Positions 13,165-52,388 of a stretch of 64,000 bases of DNA are shown here, in pieces. This stretch comes from an uncultured Solirubrobacteraceae bacterium (GTDB taxonomy: Bacteria; Actinomycetota; Thermoleophilia; Solirubrobacterales; Solirubrobacteraceae): assembly GCA_963838655.1 (NCBI GenBank), contig CAWIRW010000018.1, positions 83,397 to 147,396 of the forward strand. Direction: 5' to 3'. How positions within the stretch are numbered: the first letter of the stretch is position 1; every line of letters begins with the position of its first letter. Below the pieces are notes generated by a model, which worked only from the letters and a program-made list of their open reading frames with translations, was not told the origin of the DNA and did not search any database. Position numbers and translations under genes: made by a program.

Positions 13165-13237
13165 GCCCTTGTAGCTCAACTGGCAGAGCAGCGGACTCTT
13201 AATCCGAAGGTTCCAGGTTCGATTCCTGGCGGGGGCA
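13165..13237 (+). tRNA. tRNA-Lys (anticodon CTT)
   Basis: Cloverleaf read by eye. Acceptor GCCCTTG/CGGGGGC with two G-U pairs, D stem GCTC/GAGC, anticodon loop CTCTTAA, T arm CCAGG-TTCGATT-CCTGG. CCA is not encoded. Confidence 0.9.
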
Positions 13238-17391: not shown

Positions 17392-20371
<2,980 letters not shown>

Positions 20372-20376
20372 TCAGT

Positions 20377-21179
20377 CTAAGGACCGCCGGCCCCGCCCGC
20401 CGGCCGTAGCGCGACGCGGGCGCCGCGCCCTCCCAGAACGTGTCCTCGTCCTCGTCGCGCGCGGCTCCGGCCGGGAGCACGAAGTCGCGGTCGCGGCGCT
20501 CGTCCTCGCCGAACATCGGCAGCGGCCGGCCGCACATCTCGTACAGCCGGGAGACCGTGCGCGCGCCGATCTGGGCGGTCAGCGCGTCGTGGTCGAGGTT
20601 CGTGGTCAGGAGCAGCGCCCGGTCGTCCTCGTAGCGCGTGTTGACGATCGTGTAGAGCTGCTCGAGCACCCAGGCCGAGCTCTGCTCGGCTCCGACGTCG
20701 TCGATGTGCAGCAGGTCGACCGCGCACAGGCGGTCGATCAGCTCGTTGAGCGAGTACGCCGCTTGGTCGTCGTAGGAGTCGCGGAGGAGGGCGAGCAATC
20801 GCGGCAGCGAGTAGATCGCCACCGTGCGGTCGGCCTCCATGGCGGCCTTGGAGACGAGCATCGCCAGGGTCGTCTTGCCGGTCCCCACATCCCCCGTGAA
20901 CCAGAGGCCGCGGCCTTCGTCGAGGCGCTCGCGGATATCGCCGATGTAGCTGCGGACCTCGCGGACGAGCGCGGGGTTGCGGCGGGCCATCGTGAGCACG
21001 GGCTCGCGGTCGAACGAGACCTCGCGAAAGCGGCGCGGCAGGCGCCCGGCGACGGCGGCCGCCCGCTTGCGCGCCATCCGCGCGGGACGGCAGCTGCACG
21101 GCCGCGCCCGCCGGCCGTCCTCGTCGTAGAGGAAGCCGGAGCCGTCGCAGCGGTTCTCGGGGCAGGGCGCGGCGCTCAA
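20377..21179 (-). CDS. DnaC/IstB-like AAA+ ATPase with an N-terminal zinc-finger-like motif (putative helicase loader), 3' end undefined
   Basis: TTG 21179 overlaps the dnaB TGA (TTGA). CPENRCDGSG...CSC, Walker A GDVGTGKTT, Walker B LLHIDDVG. This frame has no stop until 19359. The nearest stop is in an adjacent frame at 20377, so the given end is approximate. Confidence 0.7.
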
Positions 21180-22586
21180 TACCCCTCGTCCCCGGCGTAG
21201 GACATGAACCGCGGGAACTCCTTCTGGAACGCCAGCTCGACCACCCCGAGCCCGCCGTTGCGGTGCTTGGAGATGATCACGTCGGCGATGCCCTCGCGGT
21301 CGGACTCGTCGTTGTAGTACTCGTCGCGGTAGATGAACATCACCAAGATCCGCGTCCTGCTCGATGCTTCCGCTTTCGCGCAGATCGGAGAGGACGGGGC
21401 GCTTGTCGGTGCGCTGCTCGACGCCGCGGTTGAGCTGGGAGAGCGCGATGACGGGGACCTCGAGCTCGCGGGCGAGCGTCTTGAGGCCGCGGGAGATCTG
21501 GCCGATCTGCTCGACGCGGTTCTCCACGCTCCCGCTCGCGCGCATGAGCTGCAGGTAGTCGATCAGGATCAGGCCGAGGCCGTCCGGGTGCTGCTGCGCG
21601 AGCCGGCGCGACTTGGCGCGGACGTCGAGCACCGAGAGGTCAGAGGAGTCGTCGATGTAGAGCGGCGAGCGCGCGAGGCGGTTCGAGGCCTGCAGGATCT
21701 TCGGCCAGCGCGACGGCGGCACCTTGCCCTTGCGCAGGTCGTCGCCACGGATCGAGGCCTGCGAGGCGACGAACCGCTGAGCGAGCTCCCCCTCGGACAT
21801 CTCGAGCGAGAACAGCGCGACGGCCGTGCTGGAGTCGAGCGCCGCGTTCTCCGCGAAGTTCGCCATCAGCGCCGATTTGCCCATCGACGGTCTTGCGGCG
21901 AGGATGATCAGGTTGCCGGGCTGGAAGCCTCCCGTGATCGCGTCGAGGTCGTCGAAGCCCGACGGGGTGCCGGTGATCGCCTTGCCTTCGCGGGAGAGGC
22001 GCTCGAGCTTCTCCAGCTCGCTGGACAGGAGGTCGCCGATCGGCAGGAAGTCCTTGCGGCTGTCCTCGTGGGCGACCTCGAGGATGGAGCGCTCGGCCAT
22101 GTCGACGAGGTCGCGCGGCAGCGCCTCGTGGCTGTGCACACGGGCCTGGATCTCGTAGGACGCGCGCAGCAGCCGGCGGAGCATCGCGTTGTCGCGCACG
22201 ATGCGCGCGTACTGGCGGACGTTGCCGACAGCCGGCACGGAGCCCGCCAGGAGGTCGATCGCCGCGCGGCCGCCGACGGACTCGAGGTCCCCGGCCTGCT
22301 TGAGGTGCTCGACGAGCGTGAGCGCGTCGACGGGCTCGCCGAGCGTGTGCAGGTCGAGCATCGCCTTGTAGATGCGCCCGTGGCCCTCGCGGTAGAAGTC
22401 CTCCGGCTGGAGCCGCTCGTCGATGATCAGGGCGGGGAGCGCGGTGTCCGAGAGCAGGACGGCGCCGAGCACCGACTGCTCCGCCTCGAGGTTCTGGGGC
22501 GGCGCGATCGGCGCGCCGTCGAACCCGCTGCGGGGTGCGCCGCCTTGCGACGAGGCGTGGCCGTTGGTGCGGTCGGGCGCGCTCAT
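21176..22586 (-). pseudogene. dnaB: replicative DNA helicase DnaB, one apparent +1 insertion near 21345
   Basis: Full DnaB sequence up to SIEQDADL. The expected C-terminus VMFIYRDEYYNDESDREGIADVIISKHRNGGLGVVELAFQKEFPRFMSYAGDEGY-stop is in the adjacent frame. GATCTTGGTGATG carries one extra base. Confidence 0.9.
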
Positions 22587-22707: not shown

Positions 22708-23160
22708 TTACTTCTGCTCGGTGACCATGGTCTTCACCGAGGCGGTGACGCCCGGAGAGACCTCGATCTCGACGATCCGCGTGCCGACCGTCCGGATCGG
22801 CTCGTCGAGGCGGATGTCGCGCCGGTCGATCGTGATGCTGCGGGCGTCCTTGATGGCGTCCGCGATGTCCTGCGAGGTGACCGAGCCGAAGAGGCGGCCG
22901 TCCTCACCGGCCTGGTGCGGGATCGTCAGCACCGTGCGGTTGAGGATCTCCGCGGTCTCCTGGGCCTTGGTCGCGGCGTCGGCGACGGCGCGGTCGGCGG
23001 CCTCGCGGCGGCGGGACGCCGCGGCGATCGAGCCCTTGGTGGCGGGCTCGGCCAGCTTGCGGGGCAGCAGGAAGTTGCGCAGGTAGCCCTTCGAGACGTC
23101 GACGACCTCACCGCGCTCGCCGAGCTGCTCCACGTCCTGGAGGAGAATCGCCTGGGGCAT
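22708..23160 (-). CDS. rplI: 50S ribosomal protein L9
   Basis: MPQAILLQDVEQLGERGEVVDVSKGYLRNFLLP, in the conserved rpsF-ssb-rpsR-rplI context. Confidence 0.93.
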   Translation of the reverse strand: MPQAILLQDVEQLGERGEVVDVSKGYLRNFLLPRKLAEPATKGSIAAASRRREAADRAVADAATKAQETAEILNRTVLTIPHQAGEDGRLFGSVTSQDIADAIKDARSITIDRRDIRLDEPIRTVGTRIVEIEVSPGVTASVKTMVTEQK

Positions 23161-23166
23161 GGGGGC

Positions 23167-23502
23167 CTAGCGCTCCCGGTCGCGGTCCCGGTCACGCCCG
23201 CCGCGGTCGCGGTCGCGGTCGTCGCGCGACTCGCGGGTGTCGCCGACGTAGGGCAGGAGCGCGAGCTCCCGCGCACGCTTCACGGCCGTGGCGATCTGGT
23301 TCTGGTGCCGGCGGCACGCGCCCGTGATGCGGCGCGACCGGATCTTGCCGCGATCCGAGATGAACTTGCGCAGCGCCGTGATGTCCTTGTAGTCGACGAA
23401 CTCGACCTTGTCGCGGCAATACGGGCAGGACTTGCGGCGCCCGCTGCCGGGGCCGCCCTTCCGATCACGCCGGCGCGTCGGCCGGCTGCGCTGCTTTGCC
23501 AC
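23167..23502 (-). CDS. rpsR: 30S ribosomal protein S18 with a C-terminal Arg/Asp-repeat extension
   Basis: [36 protein letters not shown]...[13 protein letters not shown] core, then the tail [22 protein letters not shown]. Confidence 0.93.
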
Positions 23503-23600
23503 GTTCGAAGACCTCTCTTGACTGCCGTGAGCTCAGAACCGGCGCAACAGGTTAGCGGGCCGAACGCGGCGCCCCCGGGCCGGGAGCGCCGCGCAGCGGG

Positions 23601-24074
23601 CTAGAACGGGATGTCGTCGTCGCCCGCGCTGCTGTTGCCGCCCCCGGAGGGCGTGCCGGCGGGCTCGAAGTCGCGCGTGTCGGCCGGGACGTCCGAGCGC
23701 GGGGTGAAGCCGTTGCTCTGACCGCCGCCGCCGTCCTCACGGCTGCCGAGGAACTGCACGGAGTCGGCGATGATGTCGACGGCCTGGCGCTTGTGGCCCT
23801 CGGGCGTCTCCCATTCGCGCCACTCGAGGCGCCCGTCGATCGCGACCGGGCGGCCCTTGGCGAGGAAGCGCGCGCAGTTCTCGCCCTGGGCGCCCCAGAC
23901 GGTGACATCGAAGAAGTTCGCCTTGTCGGCCCACTCGCCGCTGGCGTCCTTGCGGCGGGTGTTGGTGGCGATCCGCAGGCTGCAGACGGGCGTGCCGCCC
24001 GACGTGGCGCGGAGCTCGGGATCACGCGTGAGGTTGCCCGTGAGGACGACGCGGTTGATGTTGGTGGCGGCCAC
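23601..24074 (-). CDS. ssb: single-stranded DNA-binding protein
   Basis: OB-fold N-terminus NRVVLTGNLTRDPELR, glycine-rich linker and acidic tip DDDIPF. AAAGGAG RBS. Confidence 0.93.
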   Translation of the reverse strand: MAATNINRVVLTGNLTRDPELRATSGGTPVCSLRIATNTRRKDASGEWADKANFFDVTVWGAQGENCARFLAKGRPVAIDGRLEWREWETPEGHKRQAVDIIADSVQFLGSREDGGGGQSNGFTPRSDVPADTRDFEPAGTPSGGGNSSAGDDDIPF

Positions 24075-24218
24075 GGAGGGCTCCTTTCGGCTGCTCAGGC
24101 TCTCGAAAGTTCGGTGGACGCCGAGTCTAGGGGCGGGGTCGGCGGCTTCGGCCCACCCGCCGCATGTTGCGACGAATAATTGGCGCTTCTGTGACGAAGC
24201 GAGGCCCGCGCGATGCGA

Positions 24219-24605
24219 TCAGGCGGGTTCGTCGTCGTCGGTCGCCGCGGCGGGTGCGGCGGCTGCGACAGCGACGGCGGCGGGGCGGAGGTCCGGCGGG
24301 GGCGGCGTGCCCGGCCGCAGCTTGATGATCCGGAAGCGCAGGATGCCGTCCGTGATCTTCAGGTTGTGGTCGAGCTGCTCGAGCAGCGACGTCGGCCCGC
24401 GGAACTGCAGCAGGTGGTAGTCGGCCTCGGCGTGCTTGCGCACCTCGTAGACCGTCGGGCGGACGCCCCAGTCGTGGCGGCCGACGATCTCGCCGGCGCG
24501 ATCGACCGCGTCCTCGACGTTCGCGAGGATGGTGTCGCGCCGCTCCTGCTCGATCGTGTTGTCGAGGAGGAGGATGAGGTCGTAGAGCGGGGCTTCGGTC
24601 GCCAT
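24219..24605 (-). CDS. rpsF: 30S ribosomal protein S6
   Basis: MATEAPLYDLILLLD...HDWGVRPTVYEVRKHAEADYHLLQF. Internal ATG 24605 of listed ORF 24219..24914. Confidence 0.9.
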   Translation of the reverse strand: MATEAPLYDLILLLDNTIEQERRDTILANVEDAVDRAGEIVGRHDWGVRPTVYEVRKHAEADYHLLQFRGPTSLLEQLDHNLKITDGILRFRIIKLRPGTPPPPDLRPAAVAVAAAAPAAATDDDEPA

Positions 24606-25525: not shown

Positions 25526-26986
25526 CTACGCCGAGGCCGCCGCGCCGCGAGCCTTGGCCCGGATGTCGGCGATCTGCTCGTCGATCCAGTCCCCCGGATC
25601 GCGCGAGGTCACGATCTCCTTCAGCCCCGCGGCCCGCCTCGCGCGCGACTCGGGTGACATCGTGAGGGCCGCGTAGATCGCGTCGGCGAGCTCCTGCACG
25701 TCGAAGGGGTTCACCGACAAGGCGAACTCGCCCAGCTCCTCGTGCGCGCCCGTGTTCTCGCTCAGGATCGAGACCCCGTCGCGCTCGTTCACCAGCGGCC
25801 CCTCCTTGGCCACCAGGTTCATGCCGTCGAACATCGCGTTGACCATCATCACGTCGTAGTGCTTGTACGAGGCCACCGCCTCTTCCAAGTCATCACGCAG
25901 CTTCAGATCGATCGGCATCCAGTCGGGCGTCCCGTGCCGGTGGTTCACGACCGCCACCAGCGCCTCGATCTTCTCCAGGTACTCGGCGTACTCCGGCACG
26001 TCGGTCCGCGACGGCATGAGCTGGGCGGTGAACGTGATCCGCTCGACGAACTCCGGGTGCTGCTCGAGGAAGATGTCGAACGCCGTGAACCCGCGCAACA
26101 CGTTCTTCGACAGATCCGCTCGGTCCACGCGCAGGATCGAGTAGTCCCGCCGGCGACGCATGACCTGCTCCTCGAACTCCGCCACCCCCGGCCGGCGCGC
26201 CACCGCCTGCGTCGCCTCGTAGTCGATCGGCAGCGGATACGCGCGGACCCACACGTCGCGGTCGCCGAAGTGCACGACGCCGCGCTCCATGTCGACCTCG
26301 AGCTCCATCAGGTCGCGGCAGCACTGGAGGAAGTTGCGCCGGTACGACCGGGTGTGGAAGCCGACGATGTCGTTGGCCAGCAGACCCTCGAAGATCGCCG
26401 TGCGCACCTCGCTCGGGAGCACGCGCCAGGCGTCCGGCTGCGTCCACGGGATGTGCACGAAGTGGTGCAGGAAGACGTCCGGCCGCTCGTGCCGGACCAT
26501 CGCCGGGAGCGTGTACAGGTGGTAGTCGTGGACCATCACCAGGGGCTCGGAGAGGTCCGCGATCTCCTCCAGGACGGCCCGCGCGAGGTCCGCGTTGACG
26601 ACGTTGTACCCGTGATGGAAGGCGTCGACCTCGTGGCGCCGGATGTCCGGCGCGTTGCTCAGGTCCCACAGGTAGTGCTGGATGAACCAGAGCATCGGGT
26701 TGGCGATGATGTTGTAGAAGCCGTCGTAGGCCTCGGGGTCGGAGGCCACGAAGCGCACCTGGTAGGTGCCGCCCTCGGGCGCCTCGACCTCGAACGGCCG
26801 CCCGCCCTCGCGCGAGGACTGCTCGATGTCCCCGTCGGTCATCGCCGAGGCGATCCAGATCGCGTCGCGGTGGGAGGCGAGGCCCGTCAGGGCCGTGACC
26901 AGGCCACCCGTACCGCGCTTGATCGAGCCGTCGTCCTGATACGTGACGGGCCCACGGTTGGAGACGAGCACAAGCGGAGCCGCCAT
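25526..26986 (-). CDS. otsA: alpha,alpha-trehalose-phosphate synthase (GT20)
   Basis: LVLVSNRGP, VHDYHLY and LRVDRADLSKN motifs. Internal ATG 26986 of listed ORF 25526..28009. Confidence 0.9.
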   Translation of the reverse strand: MAAPLVLVSNRGPVTYQDDGSIKRGTGGLVTALTGLASHRDAIWIASAMTDGDIEQSSREGGRPFEVEAPEGGTYQVRFVASDPEAYDGFYNIIANPMLWFIQHYLWDLSNAPDIRRHEVDAFHHGYNVVNADLARAVLEEIADLSEPLVMVHDYHLYTLPAMVRHERPDVFLHHFVHIPWTQPDAWRVLPSEVRTAIFEGLLANDIVGFHTRSYRRNFLQCCRDLMELEVDMERGVVHFGDRDVWVRAYPLPIDYEATQAVARRPGVAEFEEQVMRRRRDYSILRVDRADLSKNVLRGFTAFDIFLEQHPEFVERITFTAQLMPSRTDVPEYAEYLEKIEALVAVVNHRHGTPDWMPIDLKLRDDLEEAVASYKHYDVMMVNAMFDGMNLVAKEGPLVNERDGVSILSENTGAHEELGEFALSVNPFDVQELADAIYAALTMSPESRARRAAGLKEIVTSRDPGDWIDEQIADIRAKARGAAASA

Positions 26987-26988
26987 GA

Positions 26989-28218
26989 CTACAACACCTC
27001 GTGGAAGATCTTCAGGTAGTCGCGCAGGTAGCGCGGGGTGAGGAAGTGCGCGCGCACGTGCTCCTTCCCTGTCCGCCCCAGGGACTTGCCCAGGGCGGGG
27101 TCCTCGAGAATCGCCAGCGTGCGCGCCGCGCACTCCTCCGGGCTGTCGACCAGGTAGCCGGACTCGCCGTCGCTGACCTGGAGCGGGATCCCGCCGACGT
27201 TGCCGCCGATGAACGGCCGGCCCTTCCACAGCGCCTCGGACACGGTCAACCCGAAGCCCTCGCGCGTCGACTTCTGGATCACGACCTCGGCGAGCGACTG
27301 GAAGGCGTTGACCTCGATCGCGCCCACGTTGTTGAAGTTGTTGAGGATGTGGATGTCCGGATCGTCGCCCGCGTGCGCGAGCGTCGAGTTGTAGAAGTCC
27401 CAGCCCTCGGGGTCGTCGGAGGCCATCGAGCCCACGAGCGCGAGCTGCACGTCCGGCCGCGCCTCCTTCACGATGCGGTAGGCGTCGATCACCCCGAGCG
27501 GGTCCTTCCAGGGGTCGAAGCGCGACACCTGGCAGATCATGGGCCGCGACACGTCGATGCCGAACTGCCGGCACACGAACGTCGCGTCCTCGACCGACAG
27601 CGCCATGTTCTTCGGCGCCAGCGGGTCGATCGCCGGCGGCACGATGTTCACTCCGCCGTCGAGCCCGGACGGCACGTAGCCGGCGACGTGGAAGAGCGAC
27701 TGCGGGTAGCGCTCGATGTACGGCAGCAGGCGCTCCATCGTCGCCGGGTTGGGCGTCGAGACGTCGATGTGGCAGCGCCACACCCAGCCCTCCGCCTTCT
27801 CGGGCGCGAGCGACAGGATCGCCGCCGGCTGGGGGTCGTGGACGATGCAGACGTCCCACCCGCGGGACAGCTCGCGCGCGTTCATCTCGTTGTACTGCGA
27901 CCAGGTGGCCCACTGCTCCTCGGTGAGGTCCTGCGGGTTGCCCTGCAGCGCGTTGTGCATGATCTTCGTGGCGTTGAAGAACTCCTCGCGCCCGTAGATC
28001 ACCTGCCACTCGACCTCGAGCCCGACGTCGCGCATCAGCGGCACGAGCGTGTAGAGGATCTCCGATACGCCGCCGCCGAACGCGGTGGCGCTCAGGTGCA
28101 CGACACGCCGGCCCTTGAGCGGCTCGGCCAGCTCGCGGATCTCCTCCACCAGCGGGCGGCCCACGAGGTGCGTGTAATCGGTGAGTGACTTGGCCGGGAG
28201 CGCTACGGGTTGCAGCAC
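26989..28218 (-). CDS. GT4 glycosyltransferase, trehalose synthase (TreT)-like
   Basis: 409 aa. The N-terminal domain RVVHLSATAFGGGVSEIL and C-terminal EGFGLTVSEALWKGRPFIG are typical of TreT-type GT4 enzymes. Its stop lies 2 nt upstream of the otsA start. Confidence 0.7.
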   Translation of the reverse strand: MLQPVALPAKSLTDYTHLVGRPLVEEIRELAEPLKGRRVVHLSATAFGGGVSEILYTLVPLMRDVGLEVEWQVIYGREEFFNATKIMHNALQGNPQDLTEEQWATWSQYNEMNARELSRGWDVCIVHDPQPAAILSLAPEKAEGWVWRCHIDVSTPNPATMERLLPYIERYPQSLFHVAGYVPSGLDGGVNIVPPAIDPLAPKNMALSVEDATFVCRQFGIDVSRPMICQVSRFDPWKDPLGVIDAYRIVKEARPDVQLALVGSMASDDPEGWDFYNSTLAHAGDDPDIHILNNFNNVGAIEVNAFQSLAEVVIQKSTREGFGLTVSEALWKGRPFIGGNVGGIPLQVSDGESGYLVDSPEECAARTLAILEDPALGKSLGRTGKEHVRAHFLTPRYLRDYLKIFHEVL

Positions 28219-31550: not shown

Positions 31551-31605
31551 GGCGCTCTGGATCCGAGGATAGTGTGGTCCAGAGCGAGCAGTACCCTCGA
31601 ACGTA

Positions 31606-33387
31606 GTGCTCGACGTTCGGGTCTATCGGGCTGCCTTCCTCCCGGCGCTCGTCGCGCTGTTCGTCGCCGCGTTCTCGCTCGCCGATCGTCCCGCGCCGCT
31701 GTCGTCGCCGCTCGCGGCCGACGCGTTCCGCGGCGACCGTGCCTTCGGCGGCCGCGCGCCGCTGCGCAACTCGCTGACCGAGCTCGGGCGCTCGTTCCCC
31801 GAGCGGCTGCCGGGATCGGCGGACGACGCCGCGCTCTCCGACCGCGTCGCCGACACGTTGGGCGCCGCCGACCGCACCGGCCGGCCGTCGTTCGACGTCA
31901 CGCGCGAGCGGACAGGCGAGATCGAGACCGTGATCGGCGTCCGGCCGGGGCTGTCGAGCCGGCGGATCGTGGTGGTCTCGCACCGCGACGCGGCCGGGAG
32001 CCCGGCGCTCGCCGAGCTCTCCGGCACGGCGGCGATGCTCGAGCTCGCACGGCTGTTCCGGGCGCGCGACCTGCAGCGCACGCTGGTGCTCGTGTCGACC
32101 TCGGGCGCGACCCTCGGTTACACGGGCGCGCAGGCGTGGGCCGAGGGCGTCGACGCGGCGAACGTCGACGCCGTGCTCGTGCTCGGCGACCTCGCGGGCG
32201 CGCGGATCGCCAAGCCATGGGTGGCGTCGTGGTCGCTCGCGGGAGGCCCGGCGCCGCTCGGCGTCCAGCGCACGGTCGAGCAGGCGCTGCGCGCGGAGGC
32301 CGGGCCGCCCGGCGGCAGCCGCGCGACCGCACAGTGGGCACGGCGGGCGTTGCCGTTCACCGTCTCCGAGCAGGGCGTGATCGCCGAGGCCGGGCTGCCC
32401 GCCGTGCTGATCGGCGTCTCGGGGGAGCGCGGGCCGGCGGCCTCGGGCCGCGTGCGCGCCGGACGCCTCGAGCGCTTCGGCCGCGGCGTGCTGCGCACGG
32501 TTCTGGCGATCGACGCCGCGCCCGCCGAGCAGGCGTTCGCCGGCGGGGCGCAGGGCATCGTGACGATGCGCAACGTGCTGCCCGACTGGGCCGTGCGCCT
32601 GCTCGTCGGCACGCTGCTGCTGCCGGCGTTCCTCACCGCGCTCGACGGCTTCTTCCGCGTGCGCCGGCGGCATCTCGCGGTCGCTCCGTGGTTCGCGTGG
32701 CTGGCCGTCGCGGGCGCGCCGATCCTGCTCGCCTGGGGGTGGACGCGCGCGCTCGGGCTCACGAGCGCGCTCGAGGTGACGGAGGCGCCCGTGCTGCCGC
32801 TGCCGGCCCTCGAGCGCTCGGGCGCGCTCGCGCTCGCCTCGGTGGCGCTCGTGCTCGCGCTCGGGTGGTTCGGCGTGCGCCCGCTCGTGCTCGCGCGCGC
32901 CGGCGAGCGCGGGAGCCCGGCCGGAGGTGGCCTCGCGGGGGCGATGGGCGCCGTCCTGTGCGTGCTGGCCGCCGTTGTGTGGGCGGCCAACCCGTACGCC
33001 GCGGCGCTGCTGCTGCCCGCGGCCCACCTGTGGCTGTTCGCCGCGGCGCCGCAGACACGTCTGCGCGGTTGGGCGGGCGCCGCTGCGGTGGCGGCCGGCC
33101 TGCTCCCGTTCGCGCTGCTGGCGCTCGCCTACTGCCAGGCGCTGGCGCTCAACCCGCTCGAGCTCGCGTGGATGGCGCTGCTGAGCGCCGCCTCGGGACA
33201 GCTCTCGTTCGCCGCCGCCGTGGTGGCTGCGACCGTCCTCGCGTGCGCCGCCGCCGTCGTGACGATCATGCGCACGCGCCAGCGCGCGGCCGCCGAGGTC
33301 GGACCCGAGCCGCTGCGCACGCGCGGCCCCGTGACGTATGCCGGCCCCGGATCGCTGGGCGGCACGGAGTCGGCGCTGCGGCGATGA
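31606..33387 (+). CDS. membrane protein with an M28-peptidase-like extracytoplasmic domain and polytopic C-terminus
   Basis: N-terminal TM, then IVVVSHRDAAGSPALAELSGTAAMLELARLF (M28-like), then about 8 TM helices. The family assignment is tentative. Confidence 0.55.
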   Translation: MLDVRVYRAAFLPALVALFVAAFSLADRPAPLSSPLAADAFRGDRAFGGRAPLRNSLTELGRSFPERLPGSADDAALSDRVADTLGAADRTGRPSFDVTRERTGEIETVIGVRPGLSSRRIVVVSHRDAAGSPALAELSGTAAMLELARLFRARDLQRTLVLVSTSGATLGYTGAQAWAEGVDAANVDAVLVLGDLAGARIAKPWVASWSLAGGPAPLGVQRTVEQALRAEAGPPGGSRATAQWARRALPFTVSEQGVIAEAGLPAVLIGVSGERGPAASGRVRAGRLERFGRGVLRTVLAIDAAPAEQAFAGGAQGIVTMRNVLPDWAVRLLVGTLLLPAFLTALDGFFRVRRRHLAVAPWFAWLAVAGAPILLAWGWTRALGLTSALEVTEAPVLPLPALERSGALALASVALVLALGWFGVRPLVLARAGERGSPAGGGLAGAMGAVLCVLAAVVWAANPYAAALLLPAAHLWLFAAAPQTRLRGWAGAAAVAAGLLPFALLALAYCQALALNPLELAWMALLSAASGQLSFAAAVVAATVLACAAAVVTIMRTRQRAAAEVGPEPLRTRGPVTYAGPGSLGGTESALRR

Positions 33388-41525: not shown

Positions 41526-41527
41526 AG

Positions 41528-41601
<74 letters not shown>

Positions 41602-50048: not shown

Positions 50049-50070
50049 GAGCGGGGCAGCTTAGTGCCCG

Positions 50071-50490
50071 CTACGGAACTTCGATGAGCAACGTCACCGG
50101 ACCGTCGTTGACGAGCGCGACGTCCATCATCGCTCCGAAGACGCCGCGCCGGGCGTCGAGGCGCGCGCAGAAGCGCTCGTACAGCGGCTCGGCGAGCTCG
50201 GGTCGCGCGGCGGCCACGTACGCGGGACGGTTGCCCTTGCGCGTGTCGCCGTAGAGCGTGAACTGGGAGACGCAGAGCACCTCGCGGTCGCCCAGCGGCT
50301 CGTTCATCCGGCCGTCGGCGTCGGGGAAGATCCGCAGGGTGCGGACCTTGTCCGCCAGGCGGTCCGCGTCGGCCTCCGTGTCGTCGTGCGTGATGCCGAG
50401 CAGCACGAGCAGCCCTGGCCCGATCTCGGCGACGCGCTCGCCCTCGACGTCGACCGACGCGCGGCTGACGCGCTGCACGAGCGCGCGCAT
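50071..50490 (-). CDS. dtd: D-aminoacyl-tRNA deacylase
   Basis: [13 protein letters not shown]...LLVLLGI...[15 protein letters not shown]...[11 protein letters not shown]. Confidence 0.9.
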
Positions 50491-51411
50491 CAGGCGACGA
50501 GCGACGCGGCCAGCAGCACGGGTACCGAGATCATCGTCGTCCACACGATGGCACCCGCGGCGAACGGCACGTCGAGTCCGTACACGTGGGCGAGCACGAC
50601 GATGTGGAGGCCGGCCGGCATCGTCGAGACGAGCAGGAAGGCCGCGGGCAGGTCGATGAACGGGGCCGCCAGCGCGACGAGCAGCGCGGGCGCGAGCAGC
50701 AGGCGGACCACGATCGCGGCGCCGATCGGCGCGCTCAGCGGCGGCGGGAACTTCAGCGCGCCCTCCTCGGCCTCCTCGGCCAGCGTCACCCCGACCGCGA
50801 AGAAGCCGAGCACCGGTACGGCGAACACGAGCGCGCGCGAGATGTCGACGAGCAGATCGGGCGCCAGCGCAGGCGGGCGCCGCGAGCGCGAGTACGACCG
50901 CCGCCAGCGGCGGGTTGCGCACGAAGAAGGCGCGGATCCGCTGCGGCACGGTCTCGCCCGCTTTGGTGCCGGTCGCGGCCGCGATCGCGAACGAGCCGAC
51001 GAAGAACACCGGCTGCTGGACGAGCGCGTCGTAGGCGACGGCCTCCGAGACGTCGTCGAAGCCCAGCAGGGCGGCCGTGACGGCGATCCCCATCAGCCCG
51101 GTGTTGGCCTGCAGCGCGACGATCGCCAGCACGCCGGCCGTGGGCCGCTCGAGGTGCAGCAGTCGGCGGCCCACGAACCACGCCACCAGCGCCGCGAGCA
51201 CGAGCGCGGCCCAGCCGAGGACGATTCCGATGCCGACGTCGGCGCTGACCTCGAGCCGCGCGATGTTGAAGAACGTGACGAACGGCATCACGCCGTAGAG
51301 CAGGAGCTTGAGGATTGCGCGCGCCCACCGCCCGGCACGGGCCCCCGCGCGCCGCTCGGCCTCGACCCCCGCCGCCAGCGACGCGGCGATGGCGAGGGCG
51401 ATCCAGATCAA
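50490..51411 (-). pseudogene. AEC (auxin efflux carrier) family transporter, one apparent +1 insertion near 50871
   Basis: The N-terminal half ...[14 protein letters not shown]...[19 protein letters not shown] continues in another frame as [29 protein letters not shown]...[21 protein letters not shown] overlap with the galT stop and TGATG overlap with dtd. Confidence 0.75.
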
Positions 51412-52388
51412 GCGTCGCGGAGCGCCGCCGCGGCGCGCTCGGGCGAGGTGATGCAGAGGTTCACGCCCGTCCCGAGCTCGAGCCCGGCGAGGTGCGTGAG
51501 GCGGGGCATGATGTCGATCCGCCAGCAGAAGCGGTCGGCGCCCTCGGGCGCGGTGCGGACCCACAGGTTGAGCGGCGGCGTGGCGCCCAGGTGGCGGCGC
51601 AGCCGGCTGAGGACGTCGTGCAGGAGCGCGGCGCCCAGCGGCCCGTCGTCCTCGAAGCGGGCACGCGAGCGGCGGGGCGCGATCATGAGCTGGAACGGCA
51701 CGCGGGAGGCATACGGCGCCATCGCCACCGCCTCGTCGTCGATCGCGACGATCCGCGCGCGTTGGCGGACCTCCTCCTGCACGAGGTCGGCGAGCACGTC
51801 GCCGCCCATCGTCCGGGCGGCGTAGGCGCCGAAGCGCTCCCGCTCACGGGCGATCGCGGCGGGCACGAAGCGCAGCGCGTAGAGCTGGGCGTGGGTGTGC
51901 GGGAGCGAGGCGCCCGCCTCCTTGCGCTCGTTGACGATCAGGTGGCGACAGGCGCAGCCGGCATGCGCGCGCATGCGCTCCCGCCACGCCTCCATCGCCG
52001 TCTGCACCTGCTCGGGCGTCAGGTCCGAGAGCGAGACGACGGGGTCCGGCGCGTTGACGATCACCTCGTGCCGGCCCGCGGCCGGCTGGGCGGTGAAGAG
52101 ATCGGGGTTGGCGTGCGGCTCGGGCTCGGTGGCGTCGGGCGCGAGCGCCGGGTAGAGGTTGGGGACGACGCGGACGGTCCAGCCGGGCGTGTCCGGCGCA
52201 CCGCCGTCCGGGCGCACCGCGTACAGCTCGGGCGGCGTCTGGTCCTCGTGGCCGAGGGCGAACGGGTCGCGCTCGGGATCGATCGGCGGCGGCGGCTCGA
52301 TGTCGAAGCCTCCGCCGGGCCGGCCGGCGCGTTCGGACGCGATGATGGTCTTGAGACCCGTGAGCGGGTCGACGCGGATCTCGCTCAC
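51408..52388 (-). CDS. galT: galactose-1-phosphate uridylyltransferase (HIT superfamily)
   Basis: VVPNLYPAL and the active-site context [15 protein letters not shown] 52388 forms a GTGA overlap with the upstream stop. Confidence 0.85.

Follow-up and report, generated by a model that had tools for sequence, protein, structure and literature searches.

Loading the replicative helicase is an essential step in the start of bacterial replication, and the current picture of it is binary, with DciA in most bacteria and, in a few lineages, a phage-derived ATPase of the DnaC/DnaI type in its place. In the survey of Brezellec et al. (2016; PMC5109545), 0 of 1,426 genomes keep dciA and dna[CI] together, and dna[CI] is counted as domesticated at least seven times, in Enterobacteriales, Aeromonadales, Alteromonadales, Clostridia, Bacilli, Aquificae and Chloroflexi; Actinobacteria are absent from the domestications named there. 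Here we describe a gene on the minus strand of a 64,000-nt stretch of contig CAWIRW010000018.1 (assembly GCA_963838655.1, positions 83,397 to 147,396), from an uncultured Solirubrobacteraceae bacterium; this whole stretch is called the window below. The gene follows dnaB and encodes a protein with an N-terminal four-cysteine module and an AAA+ ATPase domain. We put a probability of about 0.72 on its being a DnaC/DnaI-class helicase loader, fixed in the chromosome and of phage-type descent, acquired once and since inherited vertically beside dnaB.

The best profile match is to the loaders of phages, represented by PHROG 50, the PRK08116 group and the 'helicase loader' of Faecalibacterium phage FP_Brigit (AUV56630.1). 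PHROG 50, annotated as 'DnaC-like helicase loader', matches residues 23-229 (7.4e-48, 165 bits, in a collection without curated cutoffs), and this match is much stronger than that to any IstB, DnaC or DnaI model. From the C-x-C onward (residues 28-234), the family aligns with the FP_Brigit loader at 31% identity (hhalign, 99.9% probability, E = 2.8e-32). Our protein and the phage loaders are built alike: the N-terminus has CxxC...CxC, a basic helix and a linker follow, and then comes an AAA+ domain with a DD-x-GAE Walker B and a C-terminal G-x-x-x-R. The FP_Brigit loader has C-x2-C, about 31 residues, C-x-C-R and then the basic helix, whereas the hairpin of our protein is much shorter, with 16 residues between the pairs; DnaC of Bacillus phage Palmer retains just C-P-C. 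As the module architecture recurs in at least one Firmicutes phage loader, that of FP_Brigit, the plan of zinc ribbon plus AAA+ domain belongs to the phage-type loader lineage. The setting is different: phage loaders follow a DnaD-like replisome organizer in a phage replication module, whereas the gene described here is chromosomal and single-copy and is fixed after dnaB throughout a bacterial order.

Among the bacterial loaders, DnaI of Bacillus and Staphylococcus has an AAA+ domain that aligns with ours end to end and has the same DD-x-GAE Walker B. An hhalign comparison with B. subtilis DnaI paired residues 50-229 with DnaI 122-310 at 99% probability and left the N-termini unaligned. DnaI also has a zinc-type module N-terminal to its ATPase, in a domain of about 100 residues, whereas here the module takes up about 30 residues, with the four cysteines at the extreme N-terminus. 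In Bacillus, dnaI is not known to be linked to the helicase gene. Two published studies describe the DnaI zinc module as binding the helicase (PMC1636449; PMC2673437), and in one of them C67, C70 and H84 are implicated in the binding of zinc (PMC1636449). DnaC of E. coli and Aquifex has the same AAA+ fold, and K102, D160/D161, R207 and R211 of our protein align with K112, D169/E170, R216 and R220 of E. coli DnaC. It differs in that no zinc site is present in its N-terminal helicase-binding region, and in a Walker B of the DE form, which it has in common with IstB, as against the DD of DnaI, of the phage loaders and of our protein. The dnaC gene is located in the dnaTC operon, away from dnaB. 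IstB of IS21 likewise contains the PF01695 AAA+ domain and folds similarly but has another N-terminal domain, is paired with istA and is mobile, and neither istA nor mobility is seen here. DciA (PF05258), the usual helicase operator of actinobacteria, presumably has the same client, DnaB, but its fold is unrelated and it has no ATPase.

By these comparisons the protein falls within the DnaC/DnaI/IstB group of AAA+ ATPases. Pfam assigns PF01695 (IstB_IS21, the AAA+ domain common to DnaC, DnaI and IstB) with 38.4 bits, where the cutoff is 24.1, followed by Bac_DnaA. The top NCBIfam model is PRK08116 (NF005992, 1.3e-38), with PRK06835, PRK12377, DnaI, the IS21 helper and DnaC behind it, all of these below their curated cutoffs, and the Protein Data Bank (PDB) sequence matches are the AAA+ domains of DnaI and DnaC. 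An AlphaFold2 model built from 43 family members (predicted local distance difference test score, pLDDT, 88.7; predicted template-modeling score 0.83) shows a hairpin (strands 16-19 and 24-27), a helix (31-43), a linker and the AAA+ core, and is disordered past residue 233. In the core, strands 120-124 and 156-162 flank an insertion of two helices (125-134, 144-153), located where the initiator-specific motif lies. The best Foldseek matches of the model are Aquifex DnaC (3ECC, template-modeling score 0.82 on the target), E. coli DnaC in the DnaB-DnaC complex (6QEM), IstB, DnaI of S. aureus and Geobacillus, and DnaA; the predicted fold is thus that of the initiator/loader clade, within which DnaC, DnaI and IstB are not separable by fold. 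Profile searches, PDB matches and modeled fold agree with the DnaC/DnaI/IstB-like arrangement that an earlier reading of this DNA, made from the letters alone (the sequence-only reading), had proposed, and both its Walker A, GDVGTGKTT, and its Walker B, LLHIDDVG, are located in the translated product. The AAA+ set is complete, comprising the Walker A lysine, the Walker B acidic pair, sensor I, the arginine finger and sensor II. Chance does not account for these motifs: the four cysteines, G96, G101, K102, D161 and R211 are invariant in all 43 family members, whose identity goes down to 31%, and D160, T192, D226 and R228 are conserved in the family alignment.

The gene begins at TTG 21179-21177, with no other start codon ahead of the first conserved cysteine, and after the initial methionine the minus-strand translation continues with SAAPCPENRCDGSGFLYDEDGRRARPCSC. 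This TTG overlaps the TGA (21178-21176) that ends the frame-restored dnaB, whose product terminates in FMSYAGDEGY, and the TTGA overlap described in the sequence-only reading is therefore read directly from the DNA. The four-cysteine pattern of that reading also stands, but its spacing does not: 16 residues, and not 17, separate the second cysteine from the third. The first cysteine pair ranges from C-x2-C to C-x4-C among the 43 sequences and is followed by D/G-G-x-G. At the other end, the frame is stop-free through purA to 19359 (open reading frame 19359..22586), as had been stated; the stop at 20377 put forward with it did not hold, as the TAG at 20379-20377 lies in a third frame, which is neither that of the gene body nor one in which homologues support a stop. 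The sequence SLD followed by TGA (20374-20372) is present in the window one base off the gene-body frame, and we take this TGA as the true end of the gene because the homologues P0001, P0002, P0024 and P0041 all terminate with [SP]LD and a stop in the matching frame. Intact orthologues, of 256-267 amino acids, end in the same way. The indel suspected near the 3' end was thus recovered as one extra base, from the homologue ends and from DNA alignment.

The gene is real and lineage-wide in Solirubrobacterales and Thermoleophilaceae. Thousands of homologues are found in the protein database, the closest of them from metagenome-assembled genomes (MAGs) of Solirubrobacteraceae, and they are labeled 'DNA replication protein DnaC' by IMG and 'ATP-binding protein' by NCBI. 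We scanned species-representative genomes with a narrow alignment whose reach is close relatives, Conexibacter woesei itself and Rubrobacter lying outside it. The scan gave 73 loci, 71 of them labeled Solirubrobacteraceae, Solirubrobacterales, Thermoleophilaceae, Conexibacter, Baekduia or unclassified Actinomycetota, and the family is encoded in all 71; the other two, L073 and L074, match weakly and are unrelated, and L064 and L072 end at a contig edge. dnaB lies immediately upstream in 69 of the 69 scan loci that are not cut at a contig end, or 70 of 70 when the 82%-identical reference locus L001 is counted, and in each of the 70 loci that hold both genes the loader gene is single-copy at one fixed locus. 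purA follows in most of them. The order dnaB-loader-purA is also that of a complete chromosome from an isolate, Baekduia soli (CP042430.1), and dnaB and the loader gene are in the same order in a relative of 48% identity. The pair has stayed intact where rpsF-ssb-rpsR-rplI has moved or been inverted (L015, L040, L047, L049-51, L056-58). In about 59 of 69 analyzable loci the start of the loader gene overlaps the dnaB stop or lies within 5 nt of it, as NTGA in about 34, as TGATG in about 15 and at +3 to +5 in about 10. By NCBI taxonomy the Solirubrobacterales and Thermoleophilaceae families belong to two orders within the class Thermoleophilia. The minus-strand order in the window (rpsF, ssb, rpsR, rplI, dnaB, loader, purA) and that of L001 bear out the view that the gene is fused into the rpsF-ssb-rpsR-rplI-dnaB string, and the gene, for which absence from close relatives had been considered, stands after dnaB in every related genome examined.

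A neighbor-joining tree groups the 70 dnaB-linked copies in one clade, which excludes E. coli DnaC, B. subtilis DnaI and four distant zinc-ribbon paralogues (37-47% identity) located away from dnaB. The proposal of an unusual, possibly independent acquisition is consistent with this single clade; a peculiarity of one genome it is not, given the presence of the family in 71 of 71 loci of the lineage. Scans of IMG/VR with the family alignment and with two of the unlinked paralogues gave AAA+-only matches of 27-34% identity or none, and the phage collection held no record covering at least 80% of the protein. The surroundings of the paralogues are varied. One follows recJ and a gene for a 795-amino-acid protein without a Pfam domain, another stands alone amid metabolic genes, and two lie amid small hypothetical genes, one with a Fic neighbor and one with a SIR2 neighbor, in what may be mobile or defence islands (the four are at L075 8001-8810, L076 8001-8678, L091 6001-6795 and L092 4344-5111).

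We suggest that an ancestor of the Solirubrobacterales and Thermoleophilaceae would have acquired a phage-type 'DnaC-like helicase loader' on one occasion, and that the gene has probably been inherited vertically since then, in second place within a dnaB-loader-purA unit. In the window the gaps to the neighboring genes are 0 nt (dnaB) and 9 nt (purA), and no terminator-like sites were found on the coding strand across the three genes. The overlap of start and stop would couple translation, so that loader and DnaB could be made in matched amounts. The zinc module, with the helix that follows it, may bind the DnaB hexamer, by analogy with the DnaI and DnaC N-terminal domains; the ATP-bound AAA+ domains would then oligomerize on DnaB and single-stranded DNA and open the ring, or assemble it, on DNA, and the loader would be released through ATP hydrolysis.

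Several points weigh against this reading. The family is known from gene sequences and predicted structures. Its scores stay below the curated NCBIfam cutoffs for DnaC (NF005931, 57.8 vs 357) and DnaI (NF006505, 60.5 vs 228), and also for PRK08116 (132.7 vs 189 bits). The neighbor-joining tree carries no bootstrap support values. For the N-terminal module, the DnaI N-terminal domain (PF07319) gave no Pfam match and no N-terminal alignment in hhalign, and the N-terminal 60-88 residues have no sequence or fold relative in the PDB. Kinship to the DnaI N-terminal zinc domain, for which the sequence-only reading had proposed a search, was therefore undetectable by Pfam, hhalign, or PDB sequence or fold comparison, and a helicase-binding role for the module would follow from analogy only. 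Finally, the literature indicates DciA in Thermoleophilia, and the loader at oriC could be DciA, with the present protein employed elsewhere. Modeled in isolation, the N-terminal domain reaches a pLDDT of 82.7, with a helix from residue 31, and has no PDB fold match below E = 3. The sole PDB sequence match of the region, to the MyT1 zinc fingers (E = 3), we regard as a chance resemblance.

The main live alternative takes up this last point. It holds that DciA loads the helicase at oriC, while our protein is a DnaB-associated AAA+ factor that has another job, for instance to restart replication, to load DnaB again at stalled forks, or to regulate or sequester it. We regard this as unlikely, although it has points in its favor. 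Supplementary Data 1 of Brezellec et al. (PMC5109545) lists for Conexibacter woesei one PF01695 protein, D3FDX3, together with one dciA, D3EYQ7 (its entry for Rubrobacter xylanophilus has a single PF01695 protein and lacks dciA), and DciA proteins of Thermoleophilia are described by Blaine et al. (bioRxiv, 2022). The supplements of that preprint give no Thermoleophilia names. Strict linkage to dnaB would suit any partner of DnaB, origin loader or otherwise. On the other hand, every catalytic and arginine-finger residue that a working loader needs is invariant, and DciA is unconfirmed in any genome that bears the loader gene. We infer that D3FDX3 is the dnaB-linked orthologue, since it is the sole PF01695 protein listed for C. 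woesei and since the family is encoded in 71 of 71 loci.

Searches for DciA covered the window and the fetched loci. By Pfam, phmmer and a hidden Markov model (HMM), no PF05258 match was found in the loader protein, the window or these loci. A phmmer search with M. tuberculosis DciA over all their open reading frames gave nothing (the query is an exact match to P0508), and nor did an HMM built from five DciA probes. No gyrB, recF, dnaA or DciA-like motif was found in the same sequences. In the protein database the five PF05258-validated probes found only DciA of Streptomyces and Mycobacterium, a result that is uninformative for Solirubrobacterales.

A second alternative, that the copy in the window is a decaying pseudogene, or a recently inserted prophage or loader gene that hijacks the host DnaB, might be suggested by a stopless frame that runs into purA, by the phage family that is the closest profile, and by the island-like settings of some distant paralogues. 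The pattern of frameshifts speaks otherwise. Eight single-base frameshifts fall within 16.4-22.6 kb of the window, in five consecutive genes, as judged against L001, in which the genes are intact (DnaB 466, loader 256 and PurA 439 amino acids), and against L002, the closest genome, a Solirubrobacteraceae MAG (identity 95% for protein and 94.2% for DNA). The frameshift of the loader gene touches only its last few codons; the same cluster breaks the core genes dnaB (longer by one nucleotide than that of L002 in the DNA alignment) and purA, while eight genes at 22.7-30.8 kb are intact relative to L001. Relatives whose genomes are likewise long-read MAGs (L069, L070) show such breaks too. We favor sequence error because housekeeping genes, dnaB and purA, are broken within an otherwise well-conserved locus; the cluster is most likely a local error of assembly or consensus, with no decay, and the absent stop codon most likely reflects this and is not a feature of the gene. 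The identity to intact orthologues is 95%. As for a prophage, no transposase or phage genes were found among the window's open reading frames scanned, the locus is kept down to 48% identity, and neither IMG/VR nor the phage collection holds a close relative, none exceeding 34% identity. Conservation and error pattern thus lead us to reject this alternative as very improbable. Least probable of all is that the gene is an IS21-type IstB transposition helper or its remnant, an identity suggested by the Pfam domain name IstB_IS21 and the IstB structures among the Foldseek matches, and one that we reject on context and profile scores, as there is no istA, transposase or inverted repeat at the flanks, which are formed by the overlapping dnaB and by purA at 9 nt, the IS21 helper model is far from its cutoff (IS21_help_AAA, NF038214, 60.3 vs 200 bits), the gene occupies a single fixed locus in 70 of 70 loci, and PHROG 50 and PRK08116 far outscore IstB; the grouping with IS21 IstB beside an istA remnant that the sequence-only reading had considered is accordingly not what the locus contains.

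The coordinates of the loader gene, its motifs, its neighbors and the frameshifts are collected in Table 1.

Table 1. Positions in the window of the predicted helicase loader gene, its sequence elements, adjoining genes and frameshift sites.
Feature	Position	Strand	Details and basis
Loader-like gene	20372..21179	-	TTG start, ~268 codons; stop TGA 20374-20372 after removal of one extra base; 95% amino acid identity to P0001 and L002
Overlap of loader start codon and dnaB stop codon (TTGA)	21176..21179	-	Sequence; most related loci share the overlap or abutment
Four-cysteine motif C6-x4-C11-x16-C28-x-C30, predicted zinc ribbon (beta-hairpin, then helix)	21090..21164	-	43-sequence alignment; AlphaFold2 models
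Walker A GDVGTGKTT, residues 96-104	20868..20894	-	Translation, family alignment
Walker B LLHIDDVG, residues 156-163, DnaI-like DD-x-GAE form	20691..20714	-	Translation, alignments
Sensor I (TTN, N194), arginine finger R211, sensor II-like G-x-D-x-R (R228)	20496..20600	-	DnaC/DnaI structure and DnaI sequence alignments
Single extra base abolishing the in-frame stop	~20384..20391	-	Homologue ends and DNA alignment; G/C-rich run, exact base not fixable
dnaB (replicative helicase)	21176..22586	-	One extra base at ~21346; tblastn with the intact 466-amino-acid L001 DnaB splits frames at 21345/21346
purA (adenylosuccinate synthetase)	19042..20362	-	Begins 9 nt past the loader stop; one extra base at ~19603 (GGG vs GG)
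rpsF-ssb-rpsR-rplI	22708..24605	-	Directly upstream of dnaB
Frameshifts, aminotransferase-IV gene	~16660, ~16962		Comparison with relatives
Frameshifts, UDP-GlcNAc 2-epimerase-like gene	~17690, ~18220		Comparison with relatives

In several Solirubrobacterales relatives, dnaB contains one or two insertions of about 420 amino acids that keep the reading frame, at about residue 235 and about residues 402-409 of DnaB (L013, 3734-5005; L047, 6639-7904 and 8424-9701; also L004, L018, L021, L033-L035 and L067). Each of the three tested is an intein containing a homing-endonuclease domain of the LAGLIDADG type (Pfam Intein_splicing and LAGLIDADG_3); dnaB of the window is without such insertions. Just upstream of rpsF lie trehalose genes, for a TreT-like glycosyltransferase and an OtsA-like Glyco_transf_20 protein (25562-28218, minus strand), which are preceded by genes for an HtrA-like protease and a two-component system, in an order that is kept in L001 and Baekduia soli. 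Elsewhere in the window, whose G+C content is about 72%, two long frames of about 600 amino acids each, with high G+C at third codon positions, have no Pfam match at E <= 1e-5 (31573-33384 and 50065-51822, both on the plus strand); the first of them lies within a stretch of 75-78% G+C. The only Rfam matches of the window at gathering score are tRNA-Lys(CTT) (13165-13237, plus strand) and tRNA-Arg(CCT) (41527-41601, minus strand).

The analysis confirms what the sequence-only reading observed at this locus and supports its interpretation as essentially right. The kind of loader and its DnaC label are already known; its fixation after dnaB across the lineage, in a class of actinobacteria, is undescribed, and our full-text literature search found no paper on this kind of helicase loader in Thermoleophilia. 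Published surveys of helicase loaders have not counted it as a lineage-wide gene, and its residency was invisible to that of Brezellec et al. (2016) because only one genome of the order was available. The abundant soil bacteria of the Solirubrobacterales and Thermoleophilaceae thus carry a fixed loader-type ATPase whose start overlaps or abuts the dnaB stop, and its short four-cysteine module is a compact candidate for a helicase-binding element, unlike those of DnaC and DnaI. A broader proposal, to which we give even odds, is that Thermoleophilia have a resident DnaC/DnaI-type loader, co-translated with DnaB, in long and stable coexistence with the ancestral DciA operator. If this is true, it would be an eighth domestication of a phage loader, and an actinobacterial one, and a standing exception to the reported loss of dciA upon the arrival of dna[CI]. 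The two systems could then reflect a division of labor, between origin and restart, or a frozen intermediate of replacement. If DciA is also present in these bacteria, they would offer a direct test of why the two systems usually exclude each other and of what each contributes.

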